From an uncultured Actinomycetes bacterium (GTDB taxonomy: Bacteria; Actinomycetota; Thermoleophilia; UBA2241), in the NCBI GenBank assembly GCA_963709345.1, contig CAVPVX010000007.1, positions 608,001-672,000 on the forward strand: a stretch of 64,000 bases of DNA, given 5' to 3'. The notes beneath the pieces were generated by a model. The model searched no databases, had not been told where the DNA came from, and saw only the letters and a program-made list of their open reading frames with translations. This document shows positions 10,133 through 46,738 of this stretch, piece after piece (the stretch's first letter is position 1; each line of letters begins with the position of its first letter). A program made the translations under genes and the position numbers.

Positions 10133-10207
10133 TGGCTGGGGCGGGAGGATTCGAACCTCCGGATGCCGGGACCAAAACCCGGTGCCTTACCACTTGGCTA
10201 CGCCCCA
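10133..10207 (-). tRNA. tRNA-Gln (TTG)
   Basis: TGGGGCGTAGCCAAGTGGTAAGGCA CCGGG-TTTTGGT-CCCGG ... GGTTCGAATCC ... CCCAGCCA; cloverleaf with encoded CCA; usual position before glmU. Confidence 0.97.
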
Positions 10208-38188: not shown

Positions 38189-38282
38189 ACGAGCCGAAGC
38201 TTATCGCATCGTCCACGGCGGCCCGGCCGTCCCGGCCGGCATGGCCACCGGATGCCTCGCCGGCCGCTGCGATGGGAGCGGA

Positions 38283-38331
38283 ACCATGAGCGACGGGGCG
38301 GGCCCTTCGAGCCCGCCCCGTCGCTCATGGT
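38283..38331. terminator. Long perfect hairpin closing the hdr-like operon
   Basis: ACCATGAGCGACGGGGCGGGC-ccttcga-GCCCGCCCCGTCGCTCATGGT, 21-bp stem. Confidence 0.75.
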
Positions 38332-38342
38332 CATTGGGTACT

Positions 38343-38381
38343 GCCGACGGACGGCGCGACCGCGCCGCGAGATCGTCAGCC
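38343..38381 (-). promoter_or_regulatory. Putative bacterial SECIS element after the UGA of the FmdB-like gene
   Basis: UGA-G-GCUGACG-aucucg-CGGCGC-GGUC-GCGCCG-uc-CGUCGGC; the GGUC apical loop starts 20 nt after the UGA. Confidence 0.65.
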
Positions 38382-38582
38382 TCAGCCGAACCCGCTGCTG
38401 CGCTGCGGAGCGCCGCACGACGGATCCGAGAGGGCGCCGTTGCGGAAGAAGCTCGCGAGCGTCTGCCGCACATGCTGCGAGCGACACTCGGGACAGCGCT
38501 TCTGTTTGTCGCGTATCGCGACCCGCGTCAGAACCTCGAACGTGTGGCCGCAGTCCTTGCAGATGAGATCGATGTGCGCCAT
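38376..38582 (-). CDS. FmdB-family zinc-ribbon protein, probable C-terminal selenocysteine (GFG-U-G)
   Basis: CKDC..CPEC zinc ribbon; TTC GGC TGA GGC TGA followed by a SECIS-like hairpin. If the UGA is a stop, the gene ends at 38382. Confidence 0.8.
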
Positions 38583-38616
38583 GGGCGGTGCCTGCTCCTT
38601 GGGTGAGTCGGGGGCG

Positions 38617-39099
38617 TCAGATGAACAGGTTGACGTTGGCCTCGTCGGCCTTTCCGAGGTAGGCCGCCACGCCCTCGAACTCGATGTCGTCGATGAGCTC
38701 CTCCTTCGTGAAGCCCAGGATGTCCATCGAGAGCGTGCAAGCGACGAACTCCACGCCCATCTCGCGGGCGCTGTCGAAGAGCTCCTCGAGCGACATTCCG
38801 CCGGCGTCCTTTGTGGCCTTCCTCATCATGGGACTGCCGGCTCCGGCGAAGTTCATCTTGGAGAGTCCGAGCTTCTTCGTGCCCTTGGGCATCATCCGGC
38901 CGAACATCGACTGAAGCGTAGACTTCTTGGCCTCGGTCGGGACCTTCTCCGGCTTGCGGAGGATGTTCAGACCCCAGAAGGTGCAGAAGATCGTGACGTC
39001 GTCGCCCATAGCGGCGGCGCCGTTGGCGATGATGAGTGCCGCCATCACCTTGTCGAAGTCGCCACTGAACAGGATGATCGTCTTCTTGGTCGTGTCCAC
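38617..39099 (-). CDS. DsrE/DrsE_2-family sulfur-relay protein
   Basis: FSGDFDK, IIANGAAAMG, FCTFWGL and ACTLSMD (conserved Cys) motifs. Confidence 0.9.
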   Translation of the reverse strand: MDTTKKTIILFSGDFDKVMAALIIANGAAAMGDDVTIFCTFWGLNILRKPEKVPTEAKKSTLQSMFGRMMPKGTKKLGLSKMNFAGAGSPMMRKATKDAGGMSLEELFDSAREMGVEFVACTLSMDILGFTKEELIDDIEFEGVAAYLGKADEANVNLFI

Positions 39100-39163
39100 T
39101 CCAGCACCTCCAGTGCTGTCCGTTTGTTGCCTTTCGAGACCGGGGGCCTGCGCGGGCCCTGCC

Positions 39164-40150
39164 TCAGGAGGCGGATGCCTCGCGCAGGTACTCGGAGATA
39201 TCCTTGAACCGCATGGTGTCGCCGGCGGCGGTACTCAGGTTGACGAAGCACATGGGGCACATCGTGACGCACTCGGGCGCGGCGGCTCGCAGCTGCTCGA
39301 CGCGCTTCTGCGCGTTGGCGGCCGCCTTCTGCGGGTAGAGTGACTCGACGGGGCCGCCGCAGCACCAGGTCTGGCGACCCGCGTACTCCGGGTCGAGGAC
39401 GGTGACGCCGGCGGCCGCAAGCAGCTCGCGCGGCTCGTCGACGACGCCCTCGTAGCGGGCGAAGACGCAGGAGTCGTGCAGCACGACTTCAGCGGGGGAG
39501 ATGCCGGCGCGTTTGCCGCCGCTTCCGTTGCCGCCGAAGTCCCTCTCCGCCAGCACCTCGAGGTAGCTCTTCACCTCGACGTCGTACCCCTTGAGGATCT
39601 TGGGATACACGGTGCGAAGCATCGTCGTGGTGTGCGGGTCGACGGTGATCACGGTCTTCACGGCGTGCTTCTTGAACACCGCGTGGACCTTCTTGGCGTG
39701 CTCGACGACGACCTCGTCGAGCCCGAGATCGTAGGCCAGGGCGCCCGAGTACAGGTCGTCCTCGTAGAGAGCGCCGAACTCGACGCCGGCGTCGCGGAGC
39801 AGATGCACGACATTGATCGGCACCTGATCGTAGCGGGCGCGCTCCTTCGCCGAGGGGCGCGCCATGAACGCCGAGATGTTGACGAACCGGTTCACCTTTC
39901 GACCGAGGCCGGTGTACTTGGCCAGCCATGAGTCGCCGAACTTCACCTCGGCCTTGACGAGGCCTTCGATGTACGGGATGAGCTGGTACATCATCCCCGT
40001 GTAGAGCACGGTCGCGCCGCCGCGCGGGAGGCCGAGGCCCTCGGTCCACTTGGTCGCCACCTTGGGGGACAGCGGCAGCACCGACTTGCGCAGGCGCAGG
40101 TTGTCGCCGAGGATGCCGATCACGTCGCCGGTCGGGAGAGGCATCGTCAT
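39164..40150 (-). CDS. CCG-domain Fe-S protein (HdrB/HdrD-like) with only the C-terminal CCG intact
   Basis: HDSC..WCCGG..MCPMC; the first repeat is degenerate (YTGM, DLYSG, VDPHT). Confidence 0.85.
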   Translation of the reverse strand: MTMPLPTGDVIGILGDNLRLRKSVLPLSPKVATKWTEGLGLPRGGATVLYTGMMYQLIPYIEGLVKAEVKFGDSWLAKYTGLGRKVNRFVNISAFMARPSAKERARYDQVPINVVHLLRDAGVEFGALYEDDLYSGALAYDLGLDEVVVEHAKKVHAVFKKHAVKTVITVDPHTTTMLRTVYPKILKGYDVEVKSYLEVLAERDFGGNGSGGKRAGISPAEVVLHDSCVFARYEGVVDEPRELLAAAGVTVLDPEYAGRQTWCCGGPVESLYPQKAAANAQKRVEQLRAAAPECVTMCPMCFVNLSTAAGDTMRFKDISEYLREASAS

Positions 40151-40461
40151 CCCTCCCCGTGGCCGAACGTCGTACGGACGATGTGATGCCGGAGCGTGCG
40201 CACGTTCTCGGCGATGTGTACGCCGGACGGGCAGTTCTCCTCGCACATCTTGCACAGCAGACAGGAGAAGACGCTCTCCGTCTCCTCCCGAACCTTGTCC
40301 TCCATGCCGAGAAGCACGTGGCGGAACAGCTTGCGCACCTCGACGTCGACACCCATCGGGCAGATGGCGGAGCACACCCCGCAGTTCATGCAGGCGTCGG
40401 CGTTGAACTCATCAGAGCACGCCAGTTCCGTCGCCAGCCCGGGGTTCACGAGAGCAGTCAT
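40147..40461 (-). CDS. HdrC-like 2x[4Fe-4S] protein
   Basis: CMNCGVCSAICP and CLLCKMCEENCP. Confidence 0.88.
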   Translation of the reverse strand: MTALVNPGLATELACSDEFNADACMNCGVCSAICPMGVDVEVRKLFRHVLLGMEDKVREETESVFSCLLCKMCEENCPSGVHIAENVRTLRHHIVRTTFGHGEG

Positions 40462-40751
40462 TTGCCCTCCCTCTCCACCACTTGATAGCGGTAGTAGCCG
40501 TCGTCGGTGACTTCTTTGATCTCGGCGAGCCAGCCGTACTTGCGCAGGCCCATGACCCAGAACATCACCTCATGGGTCGGGCGCTCGACGGCGGCCGCGA
40601 TCTCGGGCACCGTGAGCGGTCCGTCTTCAAGCGCTGCGAGGATGCGGCGGCGCATGACCTGCTCGTCGCGGACGACCTCACGGACGTCGCGTTGTCCTGG
40701 AGCGGCGTCCCGGATCACGGGTCGCCGGCCTGACCCGGTGGTCTGCGTCAT
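40458..40751 (-). CDS. Small winged-helix protein within the hdr operon
   Basis: ILAALEDGPLTVPEIA...GLRKYG...YYRY; overlaps both neighbours. Confidence 0.8.
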   Translation of the reverse strand: MTQTTGSGRRPVIRDAAPGQRDVREVVRDEQVMRRRILAALEDGPLTVPEIAAAVERPTHEVMFWVMGLRKYGWLAEIKEVTDDGYYRYQVVEREGK

Positions 40752-42487
40752 GAGCAGCTCACCTCCATCATGCCGTCGATCATCGATCTGATCTGGGCGT
40801 CGGTGTAGCCCTGCAGGTCGGTCGCGTCCACGGGGCAGACGGGCACGCAGCCGCCGCAGCCCTTGCACGCCGTCTTGATGACCTGCGCCACCTGTTTGCC
40901 GTCCATCTCGACCTGCTCGATGGCGTCGTAGGGACACGCCTCAAGACACTTGCCGCACCAGGTGCAGGCGGCGGTGTCGACGATGGCGACCATCGGGTCG
41001 AGCTCGGCGTAACCGCGCTTGAGCATGGCGCCACTGTGCGTGACGGCGGCGAGGCCGCTGGCGACCGCCTCGGCCGAGTTCTTCGGCGACTGGCAGGAGC
41101 CACAGATGGTGACGCCGTCCACGATGGTCTCCACCGGGCGCAGCTTGGGGTGGATCTCGTTGTAGAAGCCGTCGTTGCCGACCGGCAGCTTGAGTACGCT
41201 GACGAGCTCGCCGTTCTCGCGCGGTACCATGCCGGTGACGAGCACGACGAGGTCGGCGGGTATGGCGACTTCTTCGCCCCCGGTGAGCAGGTCCTTCGTG
41301 GTGACCTTGAGACCGCCGGACGGGAGCTTCTCCACCTCCGGCGGTTCGTCGTCCGGCATGCGCAGATACAGCGAGCCCTTCTCACGCGACTCGTTCCAGA
41401 GCAGCTCGTACTTGCCGTAGGTGCGGATGTCGCGGTAGAGGTGGTACTGGCGCAGTCCGGCGAGGCCCTTCTCGGCCGCCTTGAGCGCAGCGTGCACGGC
41501 GGCTGTGCAGCAGTAGCGCGAGCAGTAGGTGTGAGCGCCTTCGACGCTCTCGTCCTGGCGACTGCCGACGCAGTAGATGTAGGCGATGGTCTTGACGGGC
41601 CGGCCGTTGTACTCGAGCGAACCGGCCGCTTCATCCACCATCTTCTTGAACTCCGGCAGAGTGACGACACCGTCCAGGCCGTAGCCGAACTCGCCGGCCG
41701 CCGGCTCGTAGGTGTCCGCGCCGGTGGCGACGATGATCGAGCCCACGTCGACCTGGACGGTCTCGAGCTGCTCGCCGTGGATGGCGATCGTCACCTGGTT
41801 GTTGCCGAAGCTGCCGCTCTTGGCCATCAGCTCGGCGTTCGTGTACACGGTGATCGCCGGATGAGCGCGCACCTTCTCTTCGAGGGTCGCGATCAGCTCG
41901 GCGCCCTTGCGCTCGTTCGGGTACATCTCGGCGAATCCGGCGACGCGGCCGCCGAGCTGCGGCTCCTTCTCGACGAGGAATACGCCGAGGCCGATCTCGG
42001 CCAAGCCGAGGGCGGCGCGCAGGCCGGCCACCCCGCCGCCCACCACAAGGCTTCTCGGCGTCGTCTCGACGACGATCGGCTCGAGCGGCTCGGTGAGGCG
42101 CGTCCGGTTGATTCCGGCGCGGACGAGCCGCACCGCCTTCTCGGTCGCGCCCGTATGGTCGTCGGTGTGCGTCCACGAGCACTGCTCGCGGACGTTGACC
42201 TGCGTGTACTGGAACGGGTTCATGCCGGCGCGCTTGGCCACGTCACGGAAGGTGACCGTGTGCAGCTTGGGCGAGCACGAGGCGACGACGAGCGCGTCGA
42301 GGCCCTGCTCCTCCGCGTCCTGCACGATCTCCTGCTGGGTCGCGTCGGAACAGGTGAACATGGCGGAGCGGGCGACGACGACGTCGTCGTCTCCCTTGAT
42401 CTCCTCGACGACCTTGTCGACGTCGACGTAGTCGCCGATGTTGCCGCCGCACTGACAGACGTACACGCCGATCTTGCGGCCGCTCAT
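40748..42487 (-). CDS. hdrA: Heterodisulfide reductase subunit A-like flavoprotein
   Basis: IGVYVCQCGGNI, ASCSP, NVREQCSW, GGGVAG, CVGSR, CSRYCC and HPKLRP motifs; C-terminal 2x[4Fe-4S]. Confidence 0.92.
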   Translation of the reverse strand: MSGRKIGVYVCQCGGNIGDYVDVDKVVEEIKGDDDVVVARSAMFTCSDATQQEIVQDAEEQGLDALVVASCSPKLHTVTFRDVAKRAGMNPFQYTQVNVREQCSWTHTDDHTGATEKAVRLVRAGINRTRLTEPLEPIVVETTPRSLVVGGGVAGLRAALGLAEIGLGVFLVEKEPQLGGRVAGFAEMYPNERKGAELIATLEEKVRAHPAITVYTNAELMAKSGSFGNNQVTIAIHGEQLETVQVDVGSIIVATGADTYEPAAGEFGYGLDGVVTLPEFKKMVDEAAGSLEYNGRPVKTIAYIYCVGSRQDESVEGAHTYCSRYCCTAAVHAALKAAEKGLAGLRQYHLYRDIRTYGKYELLWNESREKGSLYLRMPDDEPPEVEKLPSGGLKVTTKDLLTGGEEVAIPADLVVLVTGMVPRENGELVSVLKLPVGNDGFYNEIHPKLRPVETIVDGVTICGSCQSPKNSAEAVASGLAAVTHSGAMLKRGYAELDPMVAIVDTAACTWCGKCLEACPYDAIEQVEMDGKQVAQVIKTACKGCGGCVPVCPVDATDLQGYTDAQIRSMIDGMMEVSCS

Positions 42488-45255
42488 GCCTTCACCTTCA
42501 CTTTCGACTCTTCCGCGACTTTCGCTCTCTCCAGATGAGCAGCGGCCTGTGCGACCGCGGCGCCCGCGTGGAGAATGGAGTCGGGGATGTCCTTGGCCCC
42601 GGCGGCCGCGCCCGCGACGAACACGCCGGGGAGGTTGGTGCGGCCGGGGTCCATGTCTTCGTCGGCTTCGCCGACGTAGTAGTAGTCGTCGAGCGCCAGG
42701 GCCTCGCCGGCGCCGTCGAAAAGCTCGGCGACGCCGCGACCGGGCTGGACGCCGACCGCGAGCACGACCATGTCGTGCTCCGTCTCGACGAGCGCGCTGC
42801 CGTTCTCGATGTCCTCGTAGCGGAGCGTGAGGTTGCCTTCGTCGGTCTCGGTGATACCCGAGACGCGGCCCTTCACGAAGTTGGCGCCCATGTCTTTGGC
42901 CTGCTCGTAGAACTCGTCGTACCCCTTGCCCACGGAGCGTACGTCGATGTAGTAGACGGTGACGTCGGCGAGCGGCAGGGCGCCCATGATGAGCTGGTTC
43001 TGCTTGACCGAGTACATGCAGCAGATCTTGGAGCACAGCGGGTTGTCCACGGTGTCGTCGCGGGACCCGGTGCACAGGATGTAGGCGATGTTGTCCGGCA
43101 CCTTGCCGTCGCTGGGGCGAAGCACGGCGTTGTACGGCCGGGTCGGCGCCAGCAGGCGGTCCATCTGCATGCCGGTGACGACGTTCTTGTAGCGGCCGAA
43201 TCCGTACTGCGGCTTCGCGTCGGCCGGGAAGAGGTTGAAGCCCGTGGCCAGGACCACGCTGCCGAACTCCGCCTCGATCTCCTTCTCGCGCATGCTGAAG
43301 TCGATGCAGTCGGCGGGGCAGATGTCCACGCACGCGTGGCACTCGGAGCAGACACCGCAGTCGAGGCAGCGGCTCGCGCTGTGCAGCGCCTCTTCCTCGG
43401 TCATCGTCTGCTCGTCCTCGTAGAACTCGCCCGGCGCAAGTGTCACGGTCTCCCGCGGGTTGAGAGGCTCGATGCGGCTGTACGTCGCCTGCCGCCTCAG
43501 AACGGCCTCCTTGTCCACCATCGGCAGAGGGCCGTCGAATGCCGCGGGATCCAGCTCCAGGCCCTGGAGGAAGCGGTCGATCATGAAGGCCGCCCGCCAG
43601 CCCTGGCCGGCGGCGGAAGTGATCATCGAGGGGCCGGAGACGACGTCGCCGGCGGCAAACACGCGAGGCACGCTGGTCTGCAGGGTGCCCGGATCCGCCT
43701 TGATCGTCCCGGTGCTGTTGATGGGGAGACCGAAGGCGCCCGCGTCGGGTCTCATGCCCGCGGCGACGACCACGAGGTCGCACTCAAGGCTTCCGAGGGT
43801 CTCGTCCTCATACTGCGGGCTGAAGCTGCCCTCCTCGTCGAACACCGAGACGCAACGCAGGAGCTCGACGCTGCGCACGGCGTCGCCGCCGCTGAACTGA
43901 CGCACCCCGCACGAGTTCTGGAAGGCGACGCCCTCCTGGCGAGCCTCCTCGACCTCCCAGGCATGCGCGGGCATCTGCTCGTGGGCTTCGAGGCTCGCCA
44001 CCTGTACCGATGCGGCCTTCAGCCGCAGCGCGGTGCGCGCCGCATCGAGGGCGACGTTGCCGCCTCCGACCACAACGACACGCTTGCCCTCGACGTCCAG
44101 CTCTTCGCCAAGCTTGGCGGCGCGGAGGAAGTCGGCGGAGCGCATGACGCCGCGAAGATCCTCGCCGGGCACGCCGAGCTTCGTGCCGAGGTGCGTACCC
44201 ACAGCCACGAGCACGGCGTCGTAGCCTGCCTCCTTCAACTCGTCCAGATCCTCGACGCGCGAGTCCGTCTCTATCACCACGCCGGCCGCCGTCACATTCG
44301 CGAGGTCCTGGTCGACGACTTCGTTCGGGAGGCGGTACGGCGGGAGCGCCAGACGCAGCAGACCACCCGGCTGAGACGCGGCTTCGAAGACCTTCACCCC
44401 GTAGCCCTTGCGGGCCAGATGCCAGGCCGCGGTCACACCGGCCGGGCCGGAGCCGATCACCGCCACCTTCTTACCGTTGGGATCCGCGATCTTGACGCTC
44501 GTCTCGCCCTTGGCGTAGTGAGTGTCTGCGATGAAGCGCTTGAGGCGGCGGATGGAGAGGGATCCCTCCAGATCGCCCCGCATGCACTCAGCCTCGCACG
44601 GGGCGTAGCACGCCCGGCCGAGGCTGCCGACCAGCGGCGTCGCCTCGCAGACAAGGTCGAACGCCTTCTCGTACTCGCCGCTGCGTATGAGCGCGACATA
44701 GCCGTGCGCCTTGATGCCCGCAGGGCACTCGTAGCTGCACGGCGAGACGCCCTCGCGGCTGATCACGGCCTTCTTCGGCACCGCCTGGGGGAAGGCGATG
44801 TACGCCGCCCGCCGCGACACCATGTCGGCGTTGAACTCGTCGGGGACGGCGACGCTGCAGGCCATCTCGCACTGGCGACAGCCGGTGCAGGCGACCTCGT
44901 CGACGTATTTCGGCTTCTGCAGGATCCGGGCGTGATAGGTGCCGTCGCCGTTGGCGCGGATGCCCTCGACCTCGGCGTACGTGAGTACGTCGATGTTGGG
45001 GTGGTGGATGGTCGCGGCCATCTTGGGGGTGGAGATGCAGCTGGCGCAGTCGAGCGTCGGGAACACCTTGCTGAGCAGGATCATCTTGCCGCCGACGCTG
45101 GCGTCCTTCTCGACGACGAGGACCTTGTAGCCCATGTCGCCGAGCTTGAGCGCCGACTCCATACCGCCGATGCCGCTGCCGACCACCAGAGCGTCGTACT
45201 TGAGCGCTGCACCTTCGGCGCCCCGCTCGATAGCTTCGCTTCGTTGGCTGTTCAT
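42484..45255 (-). CDS. HdrL-like protein: HdrA with an inserted GltD-type NAD(P)H oxidoreductase module
   Basis: GSGIGG, FPTLDCASC and an inserted ferredoxin; CPAG, GRACYAPCE, GSGPAG, GGGNVALD and RCLDC; then CTGSR and CSKICCMYSVK. Confidence 0.9.
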   Translation of the reverse strand: MNSQRSEAIERGAEGAALKYDALVVGSGIGGMESALKLGDMGYKVLVVEKDASVGGKMILLSKVFPTLDCASCISTPKMAATIHHPNIDVLTYAEVEGIRANGDGTYHARILQKPKYVDEVACTGCRQCEMACSVAVPDEFNADMVSRRAAYIAFPQAVPKKAVISREGVSPCSYECPAGIKAHGYVALIRSGEYEKAFDLVCEATPLVGSLGRACYAPCEAECMRGDLEGSLSIRRLKRFIADTHYAKGETSVKIADPNGKKVAVIGSGPAGVTAAWHLARKGYGVKVFEAASQPGGLLRLALPPYRLPNEVVDQDLANVTAAGVVIETDSRVEDLDELKEAGYDAVLVAVGTHLGTKLGVPGEDLRGVMRSADFLRAAKLGEELDVEGKRVVVVGGGNVALDAARTALRLKAASVQVASLEAHEQMPAHAWEVEEARQEGVAFQNSCGVRQFSGGDAVRSVELLRCVSVFDEEGSFSPQYEDETLGSLECDLVVVAAGMRPDAGAFGLPINSTGTIKADPGTLQTSVPRVFAAGDVVSGPSMITSAAGQGWRAAFMIDRFLQGLELDPAAFDGPLPMVDKEAVLRRQATYSRIEPLNPRETVTLAPGEFYEDEQTMTEEEALHSASRCLDCGVCSECHACVDICPADCIDFSMREKEIEAEFGSVVLATGFNLFPADAKPQYGFGRYKNVVTGMQMDRLLAPTRPYNAVLRPSDGKVPDNIAYILCTGSRDDTVDNPLCSKICCMYSVKQNQLIMGALPLADVTVYYIDVRSVGKGYDEFYEQAKDMGANFVKGRVSGITETDEGNLTLRYEDIENGSALVETEHDMVVLAVGVQPGRGVAELFDGAGEALALDDYYYVGEADEDMDPGRTNLPGVFVAGAAAGAKDIPDSILHAGAAVAQAAAHLERAKVAEESKVKVKA

Positions 45256-45692
45256 GCGGTCGCCTTCCGGGTCGTCGGTCCCAAGCCGGAGAGGGACTCC
45301 GAGTATTCGTGCATGTAGTTGGTGAAGGGCTCCGCGCAGACGGAACAGATCGCGGCCATGCGCACTCTCTGCGGCTCGTAGCCCCTCTCGACCAGCAGTG
45401 CCTGCGCGTCCATCATGATCTTGGCGGTGCGCTGGCTGCAGTCGGGCAGGAACGCGCACTCCTCGCCGTCGGCGGCGATGAAGACTCCGTCGAAACCCTG
45501 CTCCATGGCGTAGAGGATCCAGCTCGGCTTGATACCACTGGTGCACGGAACGCTGATCACCATGACCTTGGGCGAGTAGTGCATGTGCGAACTGCCGGCC
45601 AGGTCGATGCCCGGGTCGGAGATGTTGTTGGTGCTGAAGACCAGGATGCGCGGGGAATATGCCTGATCGTCGAGTGCGGCAGTCTCGGCCAT
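45252..45692 (-). CDS. MvhD/FlpD-like Fe-S subunit (atypical Cys pattern)
   Basis: ILVF....SDPGIDLAG, VPC, GFDGVF and RVRM motifs; N-terminal CxxC absent, C-terminal CSVC present. Confidence 0.85.
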   Translation of the reverse strand: MAETAALDDQAYSPRILVFSTNNISDPGIDLAGSSHMHYSPKVMVISVPCTSGIKPSWILYAMEQGFDGVFIAADGEECAFLPDCSQRTAKIMMDAQALLVERGYEPQRVRMAAICSVCAEPFTNYMHEYSESLSGLGPTTRKATA

Positions 45693-45694
45693 CG

Positions 45695-45946
45695 TCACTT
45701 CATCTTCTTCACGAAGAGGCGCATGAAGCCCGGCTCCTCGACCACGCCCAGATACTCGTGACCCATCTTCTTGGACCACGCCGGGAGGTCCTTGGTCGTG
45801 CCGCTGTCGGTCGCCTGGACCTCCATCACGCCGCCTACGGAGACGCTGGGAATGCCCTTCTTGGCGGCCAGGATGGGACCAGGGCACGAGGTGCCTCGCG
45901 CGTCGACGACTTTCTCTACCTGGATGTTGGCGAGGTCTTCGGACAT
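45695..45946 (-). CDS. tusA: TusA/SirA family sulfur carrier
   Basis: VDARGTSCPGP (CPxP persulfide Cys) and D.G...DLPAW motifs. Confidence 0.92.
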   Translation of the reverse strand: MSEDLANIQVEKVVDARGTSCPGPILAAKKGIPSVSVGGVMEVQATDSGTTKDLPAWSKKMGHEYLGVVEEPGFMRLFVKKMK

Positions 45947-45990
45947 GATGGTCTCCTTCGTGCTTGCTAGACTGGATTCGACGCTTGTGC

Positions 45991-46008
45991 TTGTGATTTC
46001 TTTCTCAA
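45991..46008. promoter_or_regulatory. Rex-like operator upstream of tusA
   Basis: TTGTGAT-TTCT-TTCTCAA, two mismatches to TTGTGAA-N4-TTCACAA, in an AT-rich intergenic patch. Confidence 0.65.
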
Positions 46009-46083
46009 TCCAAGGGCCGGTGAGCCCCTCTTCAATGTGCTGACGGAGCGGTGTCCTGCCGCGTGGCCGGCGGCTTCGGTGTC

Positions 46084-46512
46084 TCACACCTGAGGCGCCA
46101 CCGGCGCATCCGGCGCCCCAGTCCCATCCGGCCGGGCACGCGCGGCATCGAGGAACTCGGCGACCTGCAGCGATTCACCCTGTGCGACGTGCTGCTCCAC
46201 CAGCGCCTCGCGGATGAGGGCGCACGCCTCCATGAATTTGCGGTTCGTGACGCGGTAGTACACGGTCTGAGCCTCTTTGCGCGACGCCACGAGCCGGCGC
46301 TCTTTGAGCACGCGCAGGTGCTGCGAGACGTTGTGGACCGAGATACCGACCTCCTCGGCGAGGTCGCCCACGCACTTCTCCTCGTCGCAGATGGCGTGCA
46401 GGATCGCCTGACGATGCTCGTTCGCGAGAGCCCGACAGAGGTCTGCATGCATCCGAAAGAGCGGCTTGAGATCCGGCGCGGCGGGCGTGTCACTGTCGTT
46501 GCATACTTGCAT
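46084..46512 (-). CDS. ArsR/SmtB family transcriptional regulator
   Basis: ALANEHR..IL, CVGDLA, VSQHLRVL and VYYR motifs; Cys residues in several helices. Confidence 0.92.
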   Translation of the reverse strand: MQVCNDSDTPAAPDLKPLFRMHADLCRALANEHRQAILHAICDEEKCVGDLAEEVGISVHNVSQHLRVLKERRLVASRKEAQTVYYRVTNRKFMEACALIREALVEQHVAQGESLQVAEFLDAARARPDGTGAPDAPVAPQV

Positions 46513-46516
46513 ACTT

Positions 46517-46564
46517 ACATATATACGCTATAGATGTCGCGCCGTCAAGTGCAGTCATTCACAA
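46517..46564 (-). promoter_or_regulatory. arsR promoter (TTGACG-17-TATATA) with an ArsR-type inverted repeat and a Rex-like box
   Basis: ACATATATA-cgc-TATAGATGT at 46517-46537; minus strand TTGTGAA-TGAC-TGCACTT at 46564-46547 overlaps the -35. Confidence 0.65.
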
Positions 46565-46678
46565 GCCTGGCGCGCGCGTATTCTCGCCCGCCGGGCGGCG
46601 AGCTCGGTGTGCGTCCTGGGCGCCTTCTCCCACAGGCGCTCCCGCATCCGGCGCCGTGGCCGGCCCGGCAACGCAAGA

Positions 46679-46709
46679 GGGGCGGGCGGCCCTTCCGGCC
46701 GCCCGCCCC
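46679..46709 (-). terminator. Terminator hairpin after rplQ
   Basis: GGGGCGGGCGGCC-loop-GGCCGCCCGCCCC followed by TCTTGCGTT on the minus strand. Confidence 0.7.
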
Positions 46710-46738
46710 CCAAACAAGGGACGTCTGTCTGCTGCGCG

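Follow-up and report, generated by a model that had tools for sequence, protein, structure and literature searches.

Heterodisulfide reductase (Hdr)-like enzymes that are tied to the sulfur carriers TusA and DsrE are known so far from the sulfur-oxidizing sHdr pathway. In PMC6067878 and PMC11094781, its genes are described in two arrangements, shdrC1B1AHC2B2 (type I) and shdrC1B1AHB3-etfAB-emo (type II), together with the lipoate-binding protein LbpA. According to PMC11094781, TusA and DsrE-type transferases always accompany sHdr, and type II, in which a C2-B2 fusion carries one non-cubane cluster, occurs mostly in Chloroflexota, Actinobacteriota and Bacillota; an expressed sHdr example from Thermomicrobium is given in PMC6776052. 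Here we describe a cluster of ten genes, arsR-tusA-mvhD-hdrL-hdrA-wHTH-hdrC-like-ccg-dsrE-fmdB, which all lie on the minus strand and span positions 38376-46512 of a 64-kb stretch of DNA (hereafter the window) from an uncultured Actinomycetes bacterium whose genome assembly (3.1 Mb, 69% G+C) is 98% complete. The link between sulfur carriers and an Hdr-type cluster that is seen at this locus is real and widespread.

Other relatives of the encoded proteins have been studied in different contexts. DsrK, a component of DsrMK(JOP), acts on the trisulfide of DsrC. In Desulfobacterium autotrophicum, HdrL is a heterodisulfide reductase/glutamate synthase fusion encoded beside mvhD, in one case at a tandem hdrL/hdrA locus; in PMC2702500 HdrL is associated with dsrABC or fdh genes, and an electron flow from NADH to sulfite is put forward as a speculation. 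Full-text literature searches returned no description of the cluster reported here, although subscription reviews may bear on its novelty. It seems to be unstudied: an Hdr-like complex tied to sulfur carriers, and thus of a known kind, but differently built.

A conserved Hdr-type cluster with tusA and dsrE

A preliminary description of the window, made from the sequence alone, had listed ten co-oriented genes between two strong hairpins. All of them were recovered at the same positions, and their Pfam and NCBIfam names agree with that listing. The tight coupling that it had claimed is borne out by five successive ATGA overlaps, which run from mvhD through hdrL, hdrA, wHTH and hdrC to ccg. The remaining gaps measure 2 nucleotides (nt) between tusA and mvhD, 137 nt between arsR and tusA, 64 nt between ccg and dsrE, and 34 nt between dsrE and fmdB.

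The two sulfur-carrier genes are found nowhere else in the host genome, each being present as a single copy at this cluster. TusA (45695-45946, minus strand; 83 residues) belongs to PF01206 (1e-18, 67.2 bits, cut-off 28.6) and carries Cys21 within a CPGP motif; the cut-off of the equivalog model for E. coli-type TusA is not reached (45.2 versus 78 bits). DsrE (38617-39099, minus strand; 160 residues) is a sulfur transferase in the DsrE family, with the DrsE_2 domain (PF13686, 4e-60, 202.7 bits, cut-off 25), that scores 81.8 bits on the NCBIfam DsrE2 equivalog (cut-off 210) and matches Protein Data Bank (PDB) entry 3pnx_A at 5e-38. Its single conserved cysteine, Cys121, was present in 44 of 44 relatives, and Cys21 of TusA in 61 of 61.

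A pattern search of collections with one genome per species yielded 169 loci with a relative of the CCG protein. The best 80 of these 169 were fetched, the ten window proteins were placed on them by tblastn, and only loci with sufficient flanking sequence were counted. On this basis hdrC and wHTH were each present in 77 of 77 loci, hdrA in 73 of 73, hdrL in 66 of 66 and mvhD in 63 of 63. The gene tusA stood upstream of mvhD in 61 of 62 loci, and in the exceptional one (L069) it lies just downstream; dsrE directly followed ccg in 45 of 75 loci and was found in or beside the cluster in 50 of 57. An ArsR orthologue (at least 45% identity) was located upstream in 31 of 62. The order tusA-mvhD-hdrL-hdrA-wHTH-hdrC-ccg is therefore kept across genomes, with the counts for its genes ranging from 61/62 to 77/77, and homologous clusters usually hold tusA and dsrE, the opposite of the outcome that the preliminary description had named as fatal to its proposal.

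By their labels, 60 of the 80 loci are of Actinomycetota type (Thermoleophilia, Gaiellales, 'Actinomycetes' and one Acidimicrobiaceae), 12 of Bacillota type, 5 of Chloroflexota type and 1 from Dormibacterota, with 2 unlabelled. Cultured carriers occur only among the Bacillota-type loci, namely Desulfotomaculum copahuensis, Desulfotruncus arcticus, D. alcoholivorax and Desulfallas sp. Within a sample of the window's class, the distribution is patchy: a relative of the CCG protein was detected in 30 of 201 genomes, comprising 15 of 35 in the window's own family (in addition to the window genome), 12 of 35 in a second, 2 of 32 in a third and none of the remaining 98.

Genes that flank the related clusters (45 open reading frames at 9 loci) are mostly concerned with sulfur trafficking or reactive sulfur. 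They encode a rhodanese, a class-V aminotransferase, a classical DsrE, a second DrsE_2 protein and a second TusA, as well as an SQR-like flavoprotein with DUF6951, TauE with DUF1634, OsmC, a YgaP-like membrane domain, thioredoxin and DUF5714. At four loci (L002, L005, L071 at ~13.6-20.4 kb, and L079) the entire cluster is present a second time, as a divergent copy on the opposite strand a few kb away; these copies have the order arsR-tusA-mvhD-short hdrL-hdrA-wHTH-hdrC, at 27-60% identity. In many relatives (L016, 11583-12798; L007, L015, L022, L041 and L047) dsrE is followed by a gene for a protein of ~135 residues that has no Pfam match and appears DsrE-like on inspection of its sequence, and at Thermoleophilia-type loci a DUF5714 protein is also encoded after dsrE. 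A tblastn search of the window's genome revealed no homologue of either protein.

The claim that the cluster is self-contained was substantiated by its genomic setting, a single unit of ~8.5 kb between rplQ and ecfA. On the 5' side it is bounded by a GC-rich hairpin directly after rplQ (46677-46711, minus strand; -41.2 kcal/mol, z -5.37, 0 of 200 shuffles as good) and on the 3' side by a terminator-like hairpin (38282-38332, minus strand; -53.3 kcal/mol, z -9.41, 0 of 200 shuffles as good) with a perfect stem of at least 21 bp, its 21-nt arms being 100% complementary. Both lack a T tail and were thus missed by a consensus terminator scan. In five of five congeneric genomes (G128, G008, G002, G014 and G032) rplQ and ecfA are neighbours, ~125-260 nt apart; two of these genomes hold the cluster at another site, and three are without it. 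In the window (38189-46738) the distance between the two genes is 8.55 kb, with the entire arsR-to-fmdB unit in between, which argues that the operon moved as a self-contained module. Flanking direct repeats and mobile-element genes were looked for at this insertion and none were found.

Metatranscriptome contigs from two libraries of one study cover 30 of 30 bins of the stretch at a likeness of at least 85%. They give a weak hint that relatives of the operon are transcribed, weak because DNA can occur in such libraries. The highest share of the stretch's words in any sequencing run was 0.24, and no habitat is therefore claimed from these runs. Elsewhere in the window, a tRNA (10136-10207) is the sole Rfam match at the gathering threshold.

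Flavin, iron-sulfur and CCG proteins in comparison with known systems

The presumed electron-input side of the predicted complex consists of MvhD, HdrL and HdrA. MvhD (45252-45692, minus strand; 146 residues) is an MvhD/FlpD-like [2Fe-2S] protein (FlpD, PF02662, 8e-29) with five cysteines kept in 60 of 60 relatives. HdrL (42484-45255, minus strand; 923 residues) consists of two HdrA halves separated by a GltD/NfnB-like insert made up of Fer4_20 and Pyr_redox_2 domains. Residues 1-170 and 631-916 match the FAD domain of methanogen HdrA (5odc_A) at 1.5e-100, whereas residues 170-640 match the NfnB-like chains 9bov, 9n5u ('NfnA'), 8oh5_C, 4ylf_B and 5jca_L at 1e-56 to 1e-87. Hence the thioredoxin-reductase-like FAD domain of HdrA is split in HdrL by an NAD(P)H-FAD-2x[4Fe-4S] module, which occupies the site of the inserted ferredoxin domain of HdrA; the N-terminal and C-terminal domains of HdrA are missing. 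A GltD module for the entry of NAD(P)H had been proposed earlier; the module is indeed there, with the correction that its nearest counterparts are NfnB-type modules.

HdrA itself (40748-42487, minus strand; 579 residues) comprises, according to family models and invariant cysteines, an N-terminal four-cysteine domain, an FAD domain and a C-terminal 2x[4Fe-4S] ferredoxin domain. The FAD domain carries a cluster of cysteines that are invariant among relatives, and the inserted ferredoxin domain is absent (model positions ~231-320 unmatched). Since the domain losses of HdrL and HdrA are complementary, the two proteins together would rebuild one methanogen-type HdrA pair, and we infer that they associate into an asymmetric HdrA pair, to which each contributes one half.

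At the other end stand two small iron-sulfur proteins. The HdrC-like protein (40147-40461, minus strand; 104 residues) is a 2x[4Fe-4S] ferredoxin with eight cysteines in 72 of 72 relatives; it is shorter than the methanogen HdrC models (144-198 positions) and reaches 53.6 bits on CoB_CoM_SS_C, below the cut-off of 160. The ccg product (39164-40150, minus strand; 328 residues) has one CCG domain (1e-11), and its only invariant cysteines are C228, C263, C264, C298 and C301, which make up one five-cysteine motif in the C-terminal part. A single intact motif corresponds to one site for a non-cubane cluster. In an AlphaFold2 model (pLDDT 83.5) the protein adopts the two-lobe HdrB-type fold, so that the HdrB-like character ascribed to it earlier holds for the complete fold, with the refinement that only the C-terminal motif is retained. 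The best structural match was EtfD of Mycobacterium smegmatis (9ojn; E 6e-10, TMq 0.67), followed by LutA, while HdrB reached a TMq of ~0.5; the likeness of the protein to the HdrB paralogues of its own genome is remote, at 24 bits. It presumably represents the catalytic or output end of the complex.

Distant members of the CCG family with ~400-440 residues are Fer4+CCG fusions (three of three checked by Pfam). One of these, on a metagenome contig (L087, 2866-5573), is a 429-residue protein whose gene overlaps the end of a gene for a GlcD-like FAD-linked oxidase, which shows that the wider CCG family includes partners of the 2-hydroxyacid-dehydrogenase type. A link of the CCG protein to sHdrB3 through such fused relatives was considered and dropped because the L087 gene, the one such gene whose context was fetched, follows this oxidase gene and not shdr genes. 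A search for longer CCG forms returned only 4 distant membrane HdrD/EtfD-like proteins.

Between hdrA and hdrC there is always a gene for a small winged helix-turn-helix protein free of cysteine (wHTH; 40458-40751, minus strand; 97 residues), whose core is highly conserved. Sequence models gave sub-threshold HTH matches only, its AlphaFold2 model (pLDDT 82.7) has four helices and a wing, and a PDB sequence search, Atlas and Foldseek returned generic winged-helix or ArsR-like likeness only. The protein may be a subunit, an adaptor or a regulator. A complex prediction of HdrA residues 135-579, HdrC and the CCG protein with wHTH (score 0.04, mark 0.32) spoke neither for nor against the first of these roles.

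Overall, the parts list resembles that of the methanogenic HdrABC-MvhAGD complex (5odc), with which the cluster shares the FAD domain and the N- and C-terminal cluster domains of HdrA, MvhD, an HdrC-type ferredoxin, the HdrB fold and a wiring of the flavin-bifurcation type. It differs in that the functions of HdrA are split over two different polypeptides, that the NfnB-like module replaces the inserted ferredoxin domain, that HdrC is truncated and that, of the two CCG motifs, the HdrB-like protein has retained one. Genes for the hydrogenase subunits MvhA and MvhG were not detected by Pfam or NCBIfam among the ten operon genes, and to our knowledge coenzymes M and B are not expected in bacteria. 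HdrL 170-640 is predicted to accommodate FAD, NAD(P)H and a pair of [4Fe-4S] clusters, as do NfnAB and other NfnB modules (4ylf, 5jca, 9n5u, 8oh5), yet it is inserted into an HdrA scaffold rather than paired with NfnA. DsrK/HdrD-type proteins and mycobacterial EtfD likewise combine a ferredoxin-like dicluster part with a single catalytic CCG unit; here, by contrast, each part is a soluble protein of its own, without a membrane partner, and scores on the DsrK model are 21.5-22.9 bits (cut-off 400). With the HdrL of D. autotrophicum the cluster has in common the fusion of an HdrA domain to a GltD/NfnB-like module and the adjoining mvhD, whereas a tusA/dsrE/one-CCG module is not described for those loci in the relevant part of PMC2702500.

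The relation to sHdr deserves closer comparison. Both systems combine genes for cytoplasmic Hdr-like iron-sulfur flavoproteins with tusA and dsrE-family genes, and the small open reading frame between hdrA and hdrC corresponds in position to shdrH between shdrA and shdrC2/B3. The one-cluster CCG unit (compare sHdrB3) and the phyla concerned are further points of likeness to sHdr type II. Nevertheless, the preliminary description was right to set the cluster apart from sHdr, since the HdrB1/C1 pair, LbpA and a short sHdrA were all looked for and are missing. In place of the pair there is one hdrC-like gene and one single-motif CCG gene. Linked genes for LbpA, lipoate ligase, EtfAB or EMO are likewise absent. 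HdrA, with its 579 residues and ferredoxin domains, is of the methanogen type (3e-115 to 5odc_A, 1.8e-28 to sHdrA 6tjr_A), while sHdrA has ~350 residues, FAD and one cluster but no ferredoxin domains. MvhD and the NfnB-like module, for their part, are absent from the sHdr gene orders given in the cited papers. The window was correctly said to hold no lipoate-binding gene: the sole GcvH-family gene of the genome is unlinked, on contig C1, and no LbpA was seen among the neighbours scanned at the 9 related loci.

An assignment to Qmo had also been rejected earlier, and rightly so, as the cluster has no membrane subunit and the genome no aprA above the cut-off (best score 31 versus 642 bits); the HdrC-like protein reaches 27.4 bits on the qmoC model (cut-off 300). 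The host genome contains neither dsrA nor a gene of the DsrC/TusE family. As for Flx-Hdr, the cluster includes no additional flavoprotein or ferredoxin genes, a comparison for which no Flx-specific model was used.

Three further Hdr clusters are encoded in the host genome (L084 at G000:C7:490500-503500, L085 and L086), none of which carries tusA or dsrE. One of them encodes a fused HdrL-HdrA protein of 1500 residues, MvhD, a MetV-like protein (PF12225), HdrC and HdrB and resembles the Hdr-MetFV clusters of acetogens. Another is a plain hdrC-hdrB-hdrA-mvhD cluster, and the remaining one has two large HdrA/HdrL-like genes.

Putative regulatory elements and the FmdB selenoprotein

The first gene of the operon, arsR (46084-46512, minus strand), encodes a regulator of the ArsR/SmtB family with 142 residues (HTH_5 8e-13; ArsR/SmtB subfamily 84 bits, cut-off 55). 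Three cysteines are conserved among relatives, C26 and C97 in 25 of 25 and C47 in 24 of 25, and the nearest solved structures are those of NolR, HlyU, SmtB and BigR. A role as a persulfide sensor of the BigR/SqrR/HlyU type is not claimed because the conserved cysteines are out of register with those of HlyU in the alignment. Both the ArsR and the CsoR families of regulators include thiol- and persulfide-sensing members. In Desulfotruncus arcticus (L073, 3662-4000) a CsoR-family gene ('metal-sensitive repressor') is located divergently upstream of tusA and replaces arsR.

Upstream of arsR, a sigma-70-like element (46519-46548, minus strand) comprises a -35 box TTGACG (46543-46548) and a -10 box GTATATAT (46519-46526). 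The arrangement TTGAC-N17/18-GTATATAAG followed by the start of arsR could be aligned between the window and 31 related loci, and we infer from this conservation that the element is a promoter, one that a consensus promoter scan did not flag. As it ends ~7 nt before the arsR ATG, the mRNA would be leaderless or near-leaderless.

The last gene of the operon, fmdB (38376-38582, minus strand), codes for a zinc-ribbon protein of 68 residues (Zn_ribbon_8 3e-10; TIGR02605 40.2 bits, cut-off 31.3), which the preliminary description had listed as a probable selenoprotein. The open reading frame 38385-38582 is extended by reading TGA at 38382-38384 as selenocysteine (Sec), which places the true stop codon at 38376-38378 and accounts for the end coordinate given here; the gene thus ends SSGFG-TGA-GGC-TGA, and the protein tail is C-x10-Sec-Gly. 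Eleven intact copies were compared, three from the host genome (the window copy, one on contig C1 that is 82% identical, and one on C4) and eight from six related loci. All 11 terminate in (Y/F)G-TGA-G(x)-stop and have a cysteine 8-10 residues before the TGA. A hairpin resembling a selenocysteine insertion sequence (SECIS) lies at 38351-38368 (minus strand), with a 7-bp stem that starts 13 nt after the TGA (11-14 nt across the 11 copies) and a GGUC loop, which we take to resemble the SECIS loop of E. coli fdhF. Loop and inner stem are invariant across the copies, all 77 of 77 cells are paired, and compensatory changes occur at 2 of 7 pairs (3 cells); with slid controls, the share of paired cells is 21-61%. 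The host genome possesses selA, selB, selD (with an in-frame TGA of its own) and tRNA-Sec, which form a cluster at G000:C1:120215-140595. Within the class, selD occurs in 143 of 201 genomes, many with an in-frame TGA. Taken together, the conserved TGA, the hairpin with its compensatory changes and the machinery indicate, at the level of sequence, that this FmdB-family gene encodes a selenoprotein.

In the parts of PMC2398784 and PMC13188914 that report FmdB-family selenoproteins, from ocean metagenomes, Sec is placed in the ribbon motif as CxxU or UxxU. The protein described here belongs to the same family, TIGR02605, but both CxxC pairs consist of cysteines, and Sec stands last but one in a conserved C-x8-10-U-G tail. 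Because the recorded forms have Sec in the ribbon motif, a C-terminal-Sec form of FmdB appears to be new to the bacterial selenoproteome, and gene callers truncate it at present: of 32 database homologues found, the 10 that were read all terminate immediately ahead of the TGA, with no cysteine at this position in any of them.

FmdB was also considered as a core part of the cluster. This was ruled out since fmdB is present within 10 kb of the cluster at 6 of 80 loci and is about as frequent in the window's own family with the cluster (15 of 16 genomes) as without it (16 of 20). In the second family fmdB occurs more often in genomes that have the cluster (6 of 12) than in those that do not (2 of 23); all these counts come from related genomes and are not independent. 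The selenoprotein is thus a lineage-specific extra. The two additional fmdB genes of the host genome (L082 at G000:C1:322800-324500 and L083 at G000:C4:296700-298700) share the G-TGA-G tail and the hairpin. One of them comes after osmC, a small ferredoxin gene and a second arsR, a module that the relatives L015, L016, L022 and L023 have 5-7 kb downstream of their cluster; the other adjoins a gene for a DsbD-like membrane protein.

Candidate functions of the cluster

Our best reading, which we hold tentatively, is that the complex reduces TusA/DsrE-bound sulfane sulfur with NAD(P)H. One operon, moved as a unit, would encode a soluble cytoplasmic iron-sulfur flavoprotein complex of the Hdr type that is dedicated to TusA and DsrE. 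Electrons from NAD(P)H would enter at the NfnB-like module, and a second port is probably provided for a ferredoxin-type carrier by MvhD and the C-terminal ferredoxin domain of HdrA. The HdrC/CCG end would act on sulfur bound to carrier cysteines, that is, on a persulfide or polysulfide of TusA or DsrE or on a TusA-S(n)-DsrE bridge. Such an action may be likened to that of DsrK on DsrC trisulfide, by analogy only, as the CCG protein is not a member of the DsrK family. Under anoxia the net reaction would most likely convert the sulfane sulfur on the carriers into sulfide, either for detoxification or for the use of S0/polysulfide, and it may be switched on by a cysteine-bearing regulator of the ArsR type (elsewhere of the CsoR type), with the Sec-containing FmdB serving as a putative lineage-specific accessory that has a redox-active tail. 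Of the NAD(P)H-to-sulfur chain proposed in the preliminary description, the carrier linkage and the parts have stood; a simple linear chain seems less likely, since three electron ports (the NfnB-like module, MvhD with the C-terminal ferredoxin domain, and HdrC-CCG) point to a more complex system.

Reduction is favored because the core of HdrA belongs to the reductive type found in methanogens, because the B1C1 catalytic unit of the oxidative system is missing, because the hosts look anaerobic (three further Hdr clusters, one of them with a MetV-like gene, and carriers of the Desulfotomaculum type), and because the regulator families include thiol and persulfide sensors. The Desulfotomaculum-type genera of the four cultured carriers are known as strict anaerobic sulfate reducers. 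Several points weigh against this reading. The CCG protein has one cluster site compared with the two used by HdrB, its top structural match is the electron-transfer protein EtfD, and the fused relative L087 (the one context of this kind that was fetched) adjoins a GlcD-like FAD oxidase; for these reasons membership in the CCG family does not by itself entail disulfide or persulfide chemistry. In addition, no dsrE was found near the cluster at seven of 57 loci (L039, L042, L052, L055, L068, L078 and L079), the ArsR orthologue is limited to just 31 of the 62 countable loci, the succession of hdrA, a small open reading frame, hdrC and a one-cluster CCG gene parallels sHdr, and TauE genes occur near some relatives. 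Finally, the couples of S0 or polysulfide with sulfide lie near -260 to -270 mV. With these potentials, NAD(P)H provides little driving force and no surplus for the reduction of ferredoxin, so that a wiring of the bifurcation type is left unexplained by simple persulfide reduction.

One may also consider a more far-reaching version, in which the complex would be a flavin-based electron-bifurcating or confurcating NAD(P)H:ferredoxin:carrier-protein-polysulfide oxidoreductase and a third TusA/DsrE-linked Hdr class beside sHdr types I and II, although taken as a whole this version is improbable. It would make the complex an anaerobic, energy-coupled counterpart of persulfide dioxygenase, with flavin modules of the HdrA and the NfnB type fused in one enzyme, at whose lone non-cubane cluster a 'protein heterodisulfide', TusA-S(n)-DsrE, would be cleaved. 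FmdB, with the C-x(8-10)-Sec-Gly tail that it has in the window's lineage, would be a swinging-arm co-substrate similar to DsrC and form a selenotrisulfide.

The same complex might also work in the oxidative direction and take TusA/DsrE-bound sulfane sulfur towards sulfite, with electrons passing to NAD(P)+ via an NfnB-like module that replaces the LbpA/lipoamide-dehydrogenase outlet of sHdr and with a possible pull by co-oxidation or co-reduction of ferredoxin. TusA and DsrE-type transferases are the constant companions of sHdr in PMC11094781, which also ascribes a one-cluster C2-B2 fusion to type II, in phyla that hold the present cluster. The order hdrA-small open reading frame-hdrC-CCG mirrors shdrA-H-C2-B2 as given in the corresponding part of PMC6067878, and genes for a TauE sulfite exporter and DUF1634 are found 3-4 kb downstream of the cluster in some relatives. 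Yet the TauE homologue of the host genome is unlinked to the cluster, sHdrB1/C1, the proposed two-cluster catalytic unit, is replaced by one single-motif CCG protein, and lbpA is not linked. HdrA is much closer to the methanogen protein than to sHdrA, the cluster resides in Desulfotomaculum-type genera and in a host genome rich in anaerobic modules of the Hdr/MetV type, and the oxidative conversion of sulfane sulfur into sulfite with NAD(P)+ would be uphill. Weighing these observations, we regard an oxidative role as rather unlikely.

If the sulfur carriers are not the substrate, the Hdr module could serve a disulfide, of low molecular weight or in a protein, or another non-sulfane compound, or merely shuttle electrons between NAD(P)H, ferredoxin and a further acceptor, while TusA and DsrE might, for example, provide sulfur to mature the many iron-sulfur clusters or to make a thio-cofactor. 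The resemblance of the CCG protein to the electron-transfer proteins EtfD and LutA, its GlcD-partnered fused relative and a cysteine-desulfurase-like gene adjoining some relatives are compatible with this idea, as is the reuse of HdrL/HdrA/MvhD in the host genome with a MetV-like protein and an ordinary HdrBC, which marks the input module as generic. A need for maturation hardly explains, on the other hand, why, in several phyla, tusA is found in 62 of 62 loci (the downstream case included) and dsrE in 50 of 57, with invariant cysteines, or why the three other Hdr clusters of the genome manage without either gene, and such a generic role has in our view a low probability. Least of all do we favor a function in selenium metabolism, in which the Sec protein would join DsrE and a carrier of the TusA/YedF kind in reducing or trafficking selenium species for the synthesis of selenophosphate. 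A selenoprotein gene does end the operon, the full Sec machinery is present in the genome and TusA scores on YedF models, but it does so weakly (25.7 and 21.2 bits), far under the cut-offs (79 and 110) and under its TusA score of 45.2. Moreover, selD is common either way (25 of 30 genomes with the cluster and 118 of 171 without) and thus not enriched, and the scarcity of fmdB near the cluster (6 of 80 loci) together with its similar frequency in the own family without and with the cluster (16 of 20 and 15 of 16) makes this function highly improbable.

Whichever substrate and direction apply, the cluster represents a second, differently wired solution next to sHdr, without a lipoate protein and with a built-in NAD(P)H module and a bifurcating core of the methanogen type. 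It is common, with 169 loci in collections of one genome per species, 30 of 201 genomes of the class and many assemblies from soil, sediment and groundwater, and its carriers are poorly understood anaerobic Actinomycetota, Chloroflexota and sulfate-reducing Bacillota. If carrier-bound sulfane sulfur is indeed reduced or oxidized by this complex, it would fill a gap in our view of how anaerobes without Dsr handle S0, polysulfide and persulfide, and it would alter how 'sulfur-cycling potential' is read from metagenomes. With four cultured carriers at hand, it would also offer a tractable system for the action of a single non-cubane cluster on protein-bound sulfur.

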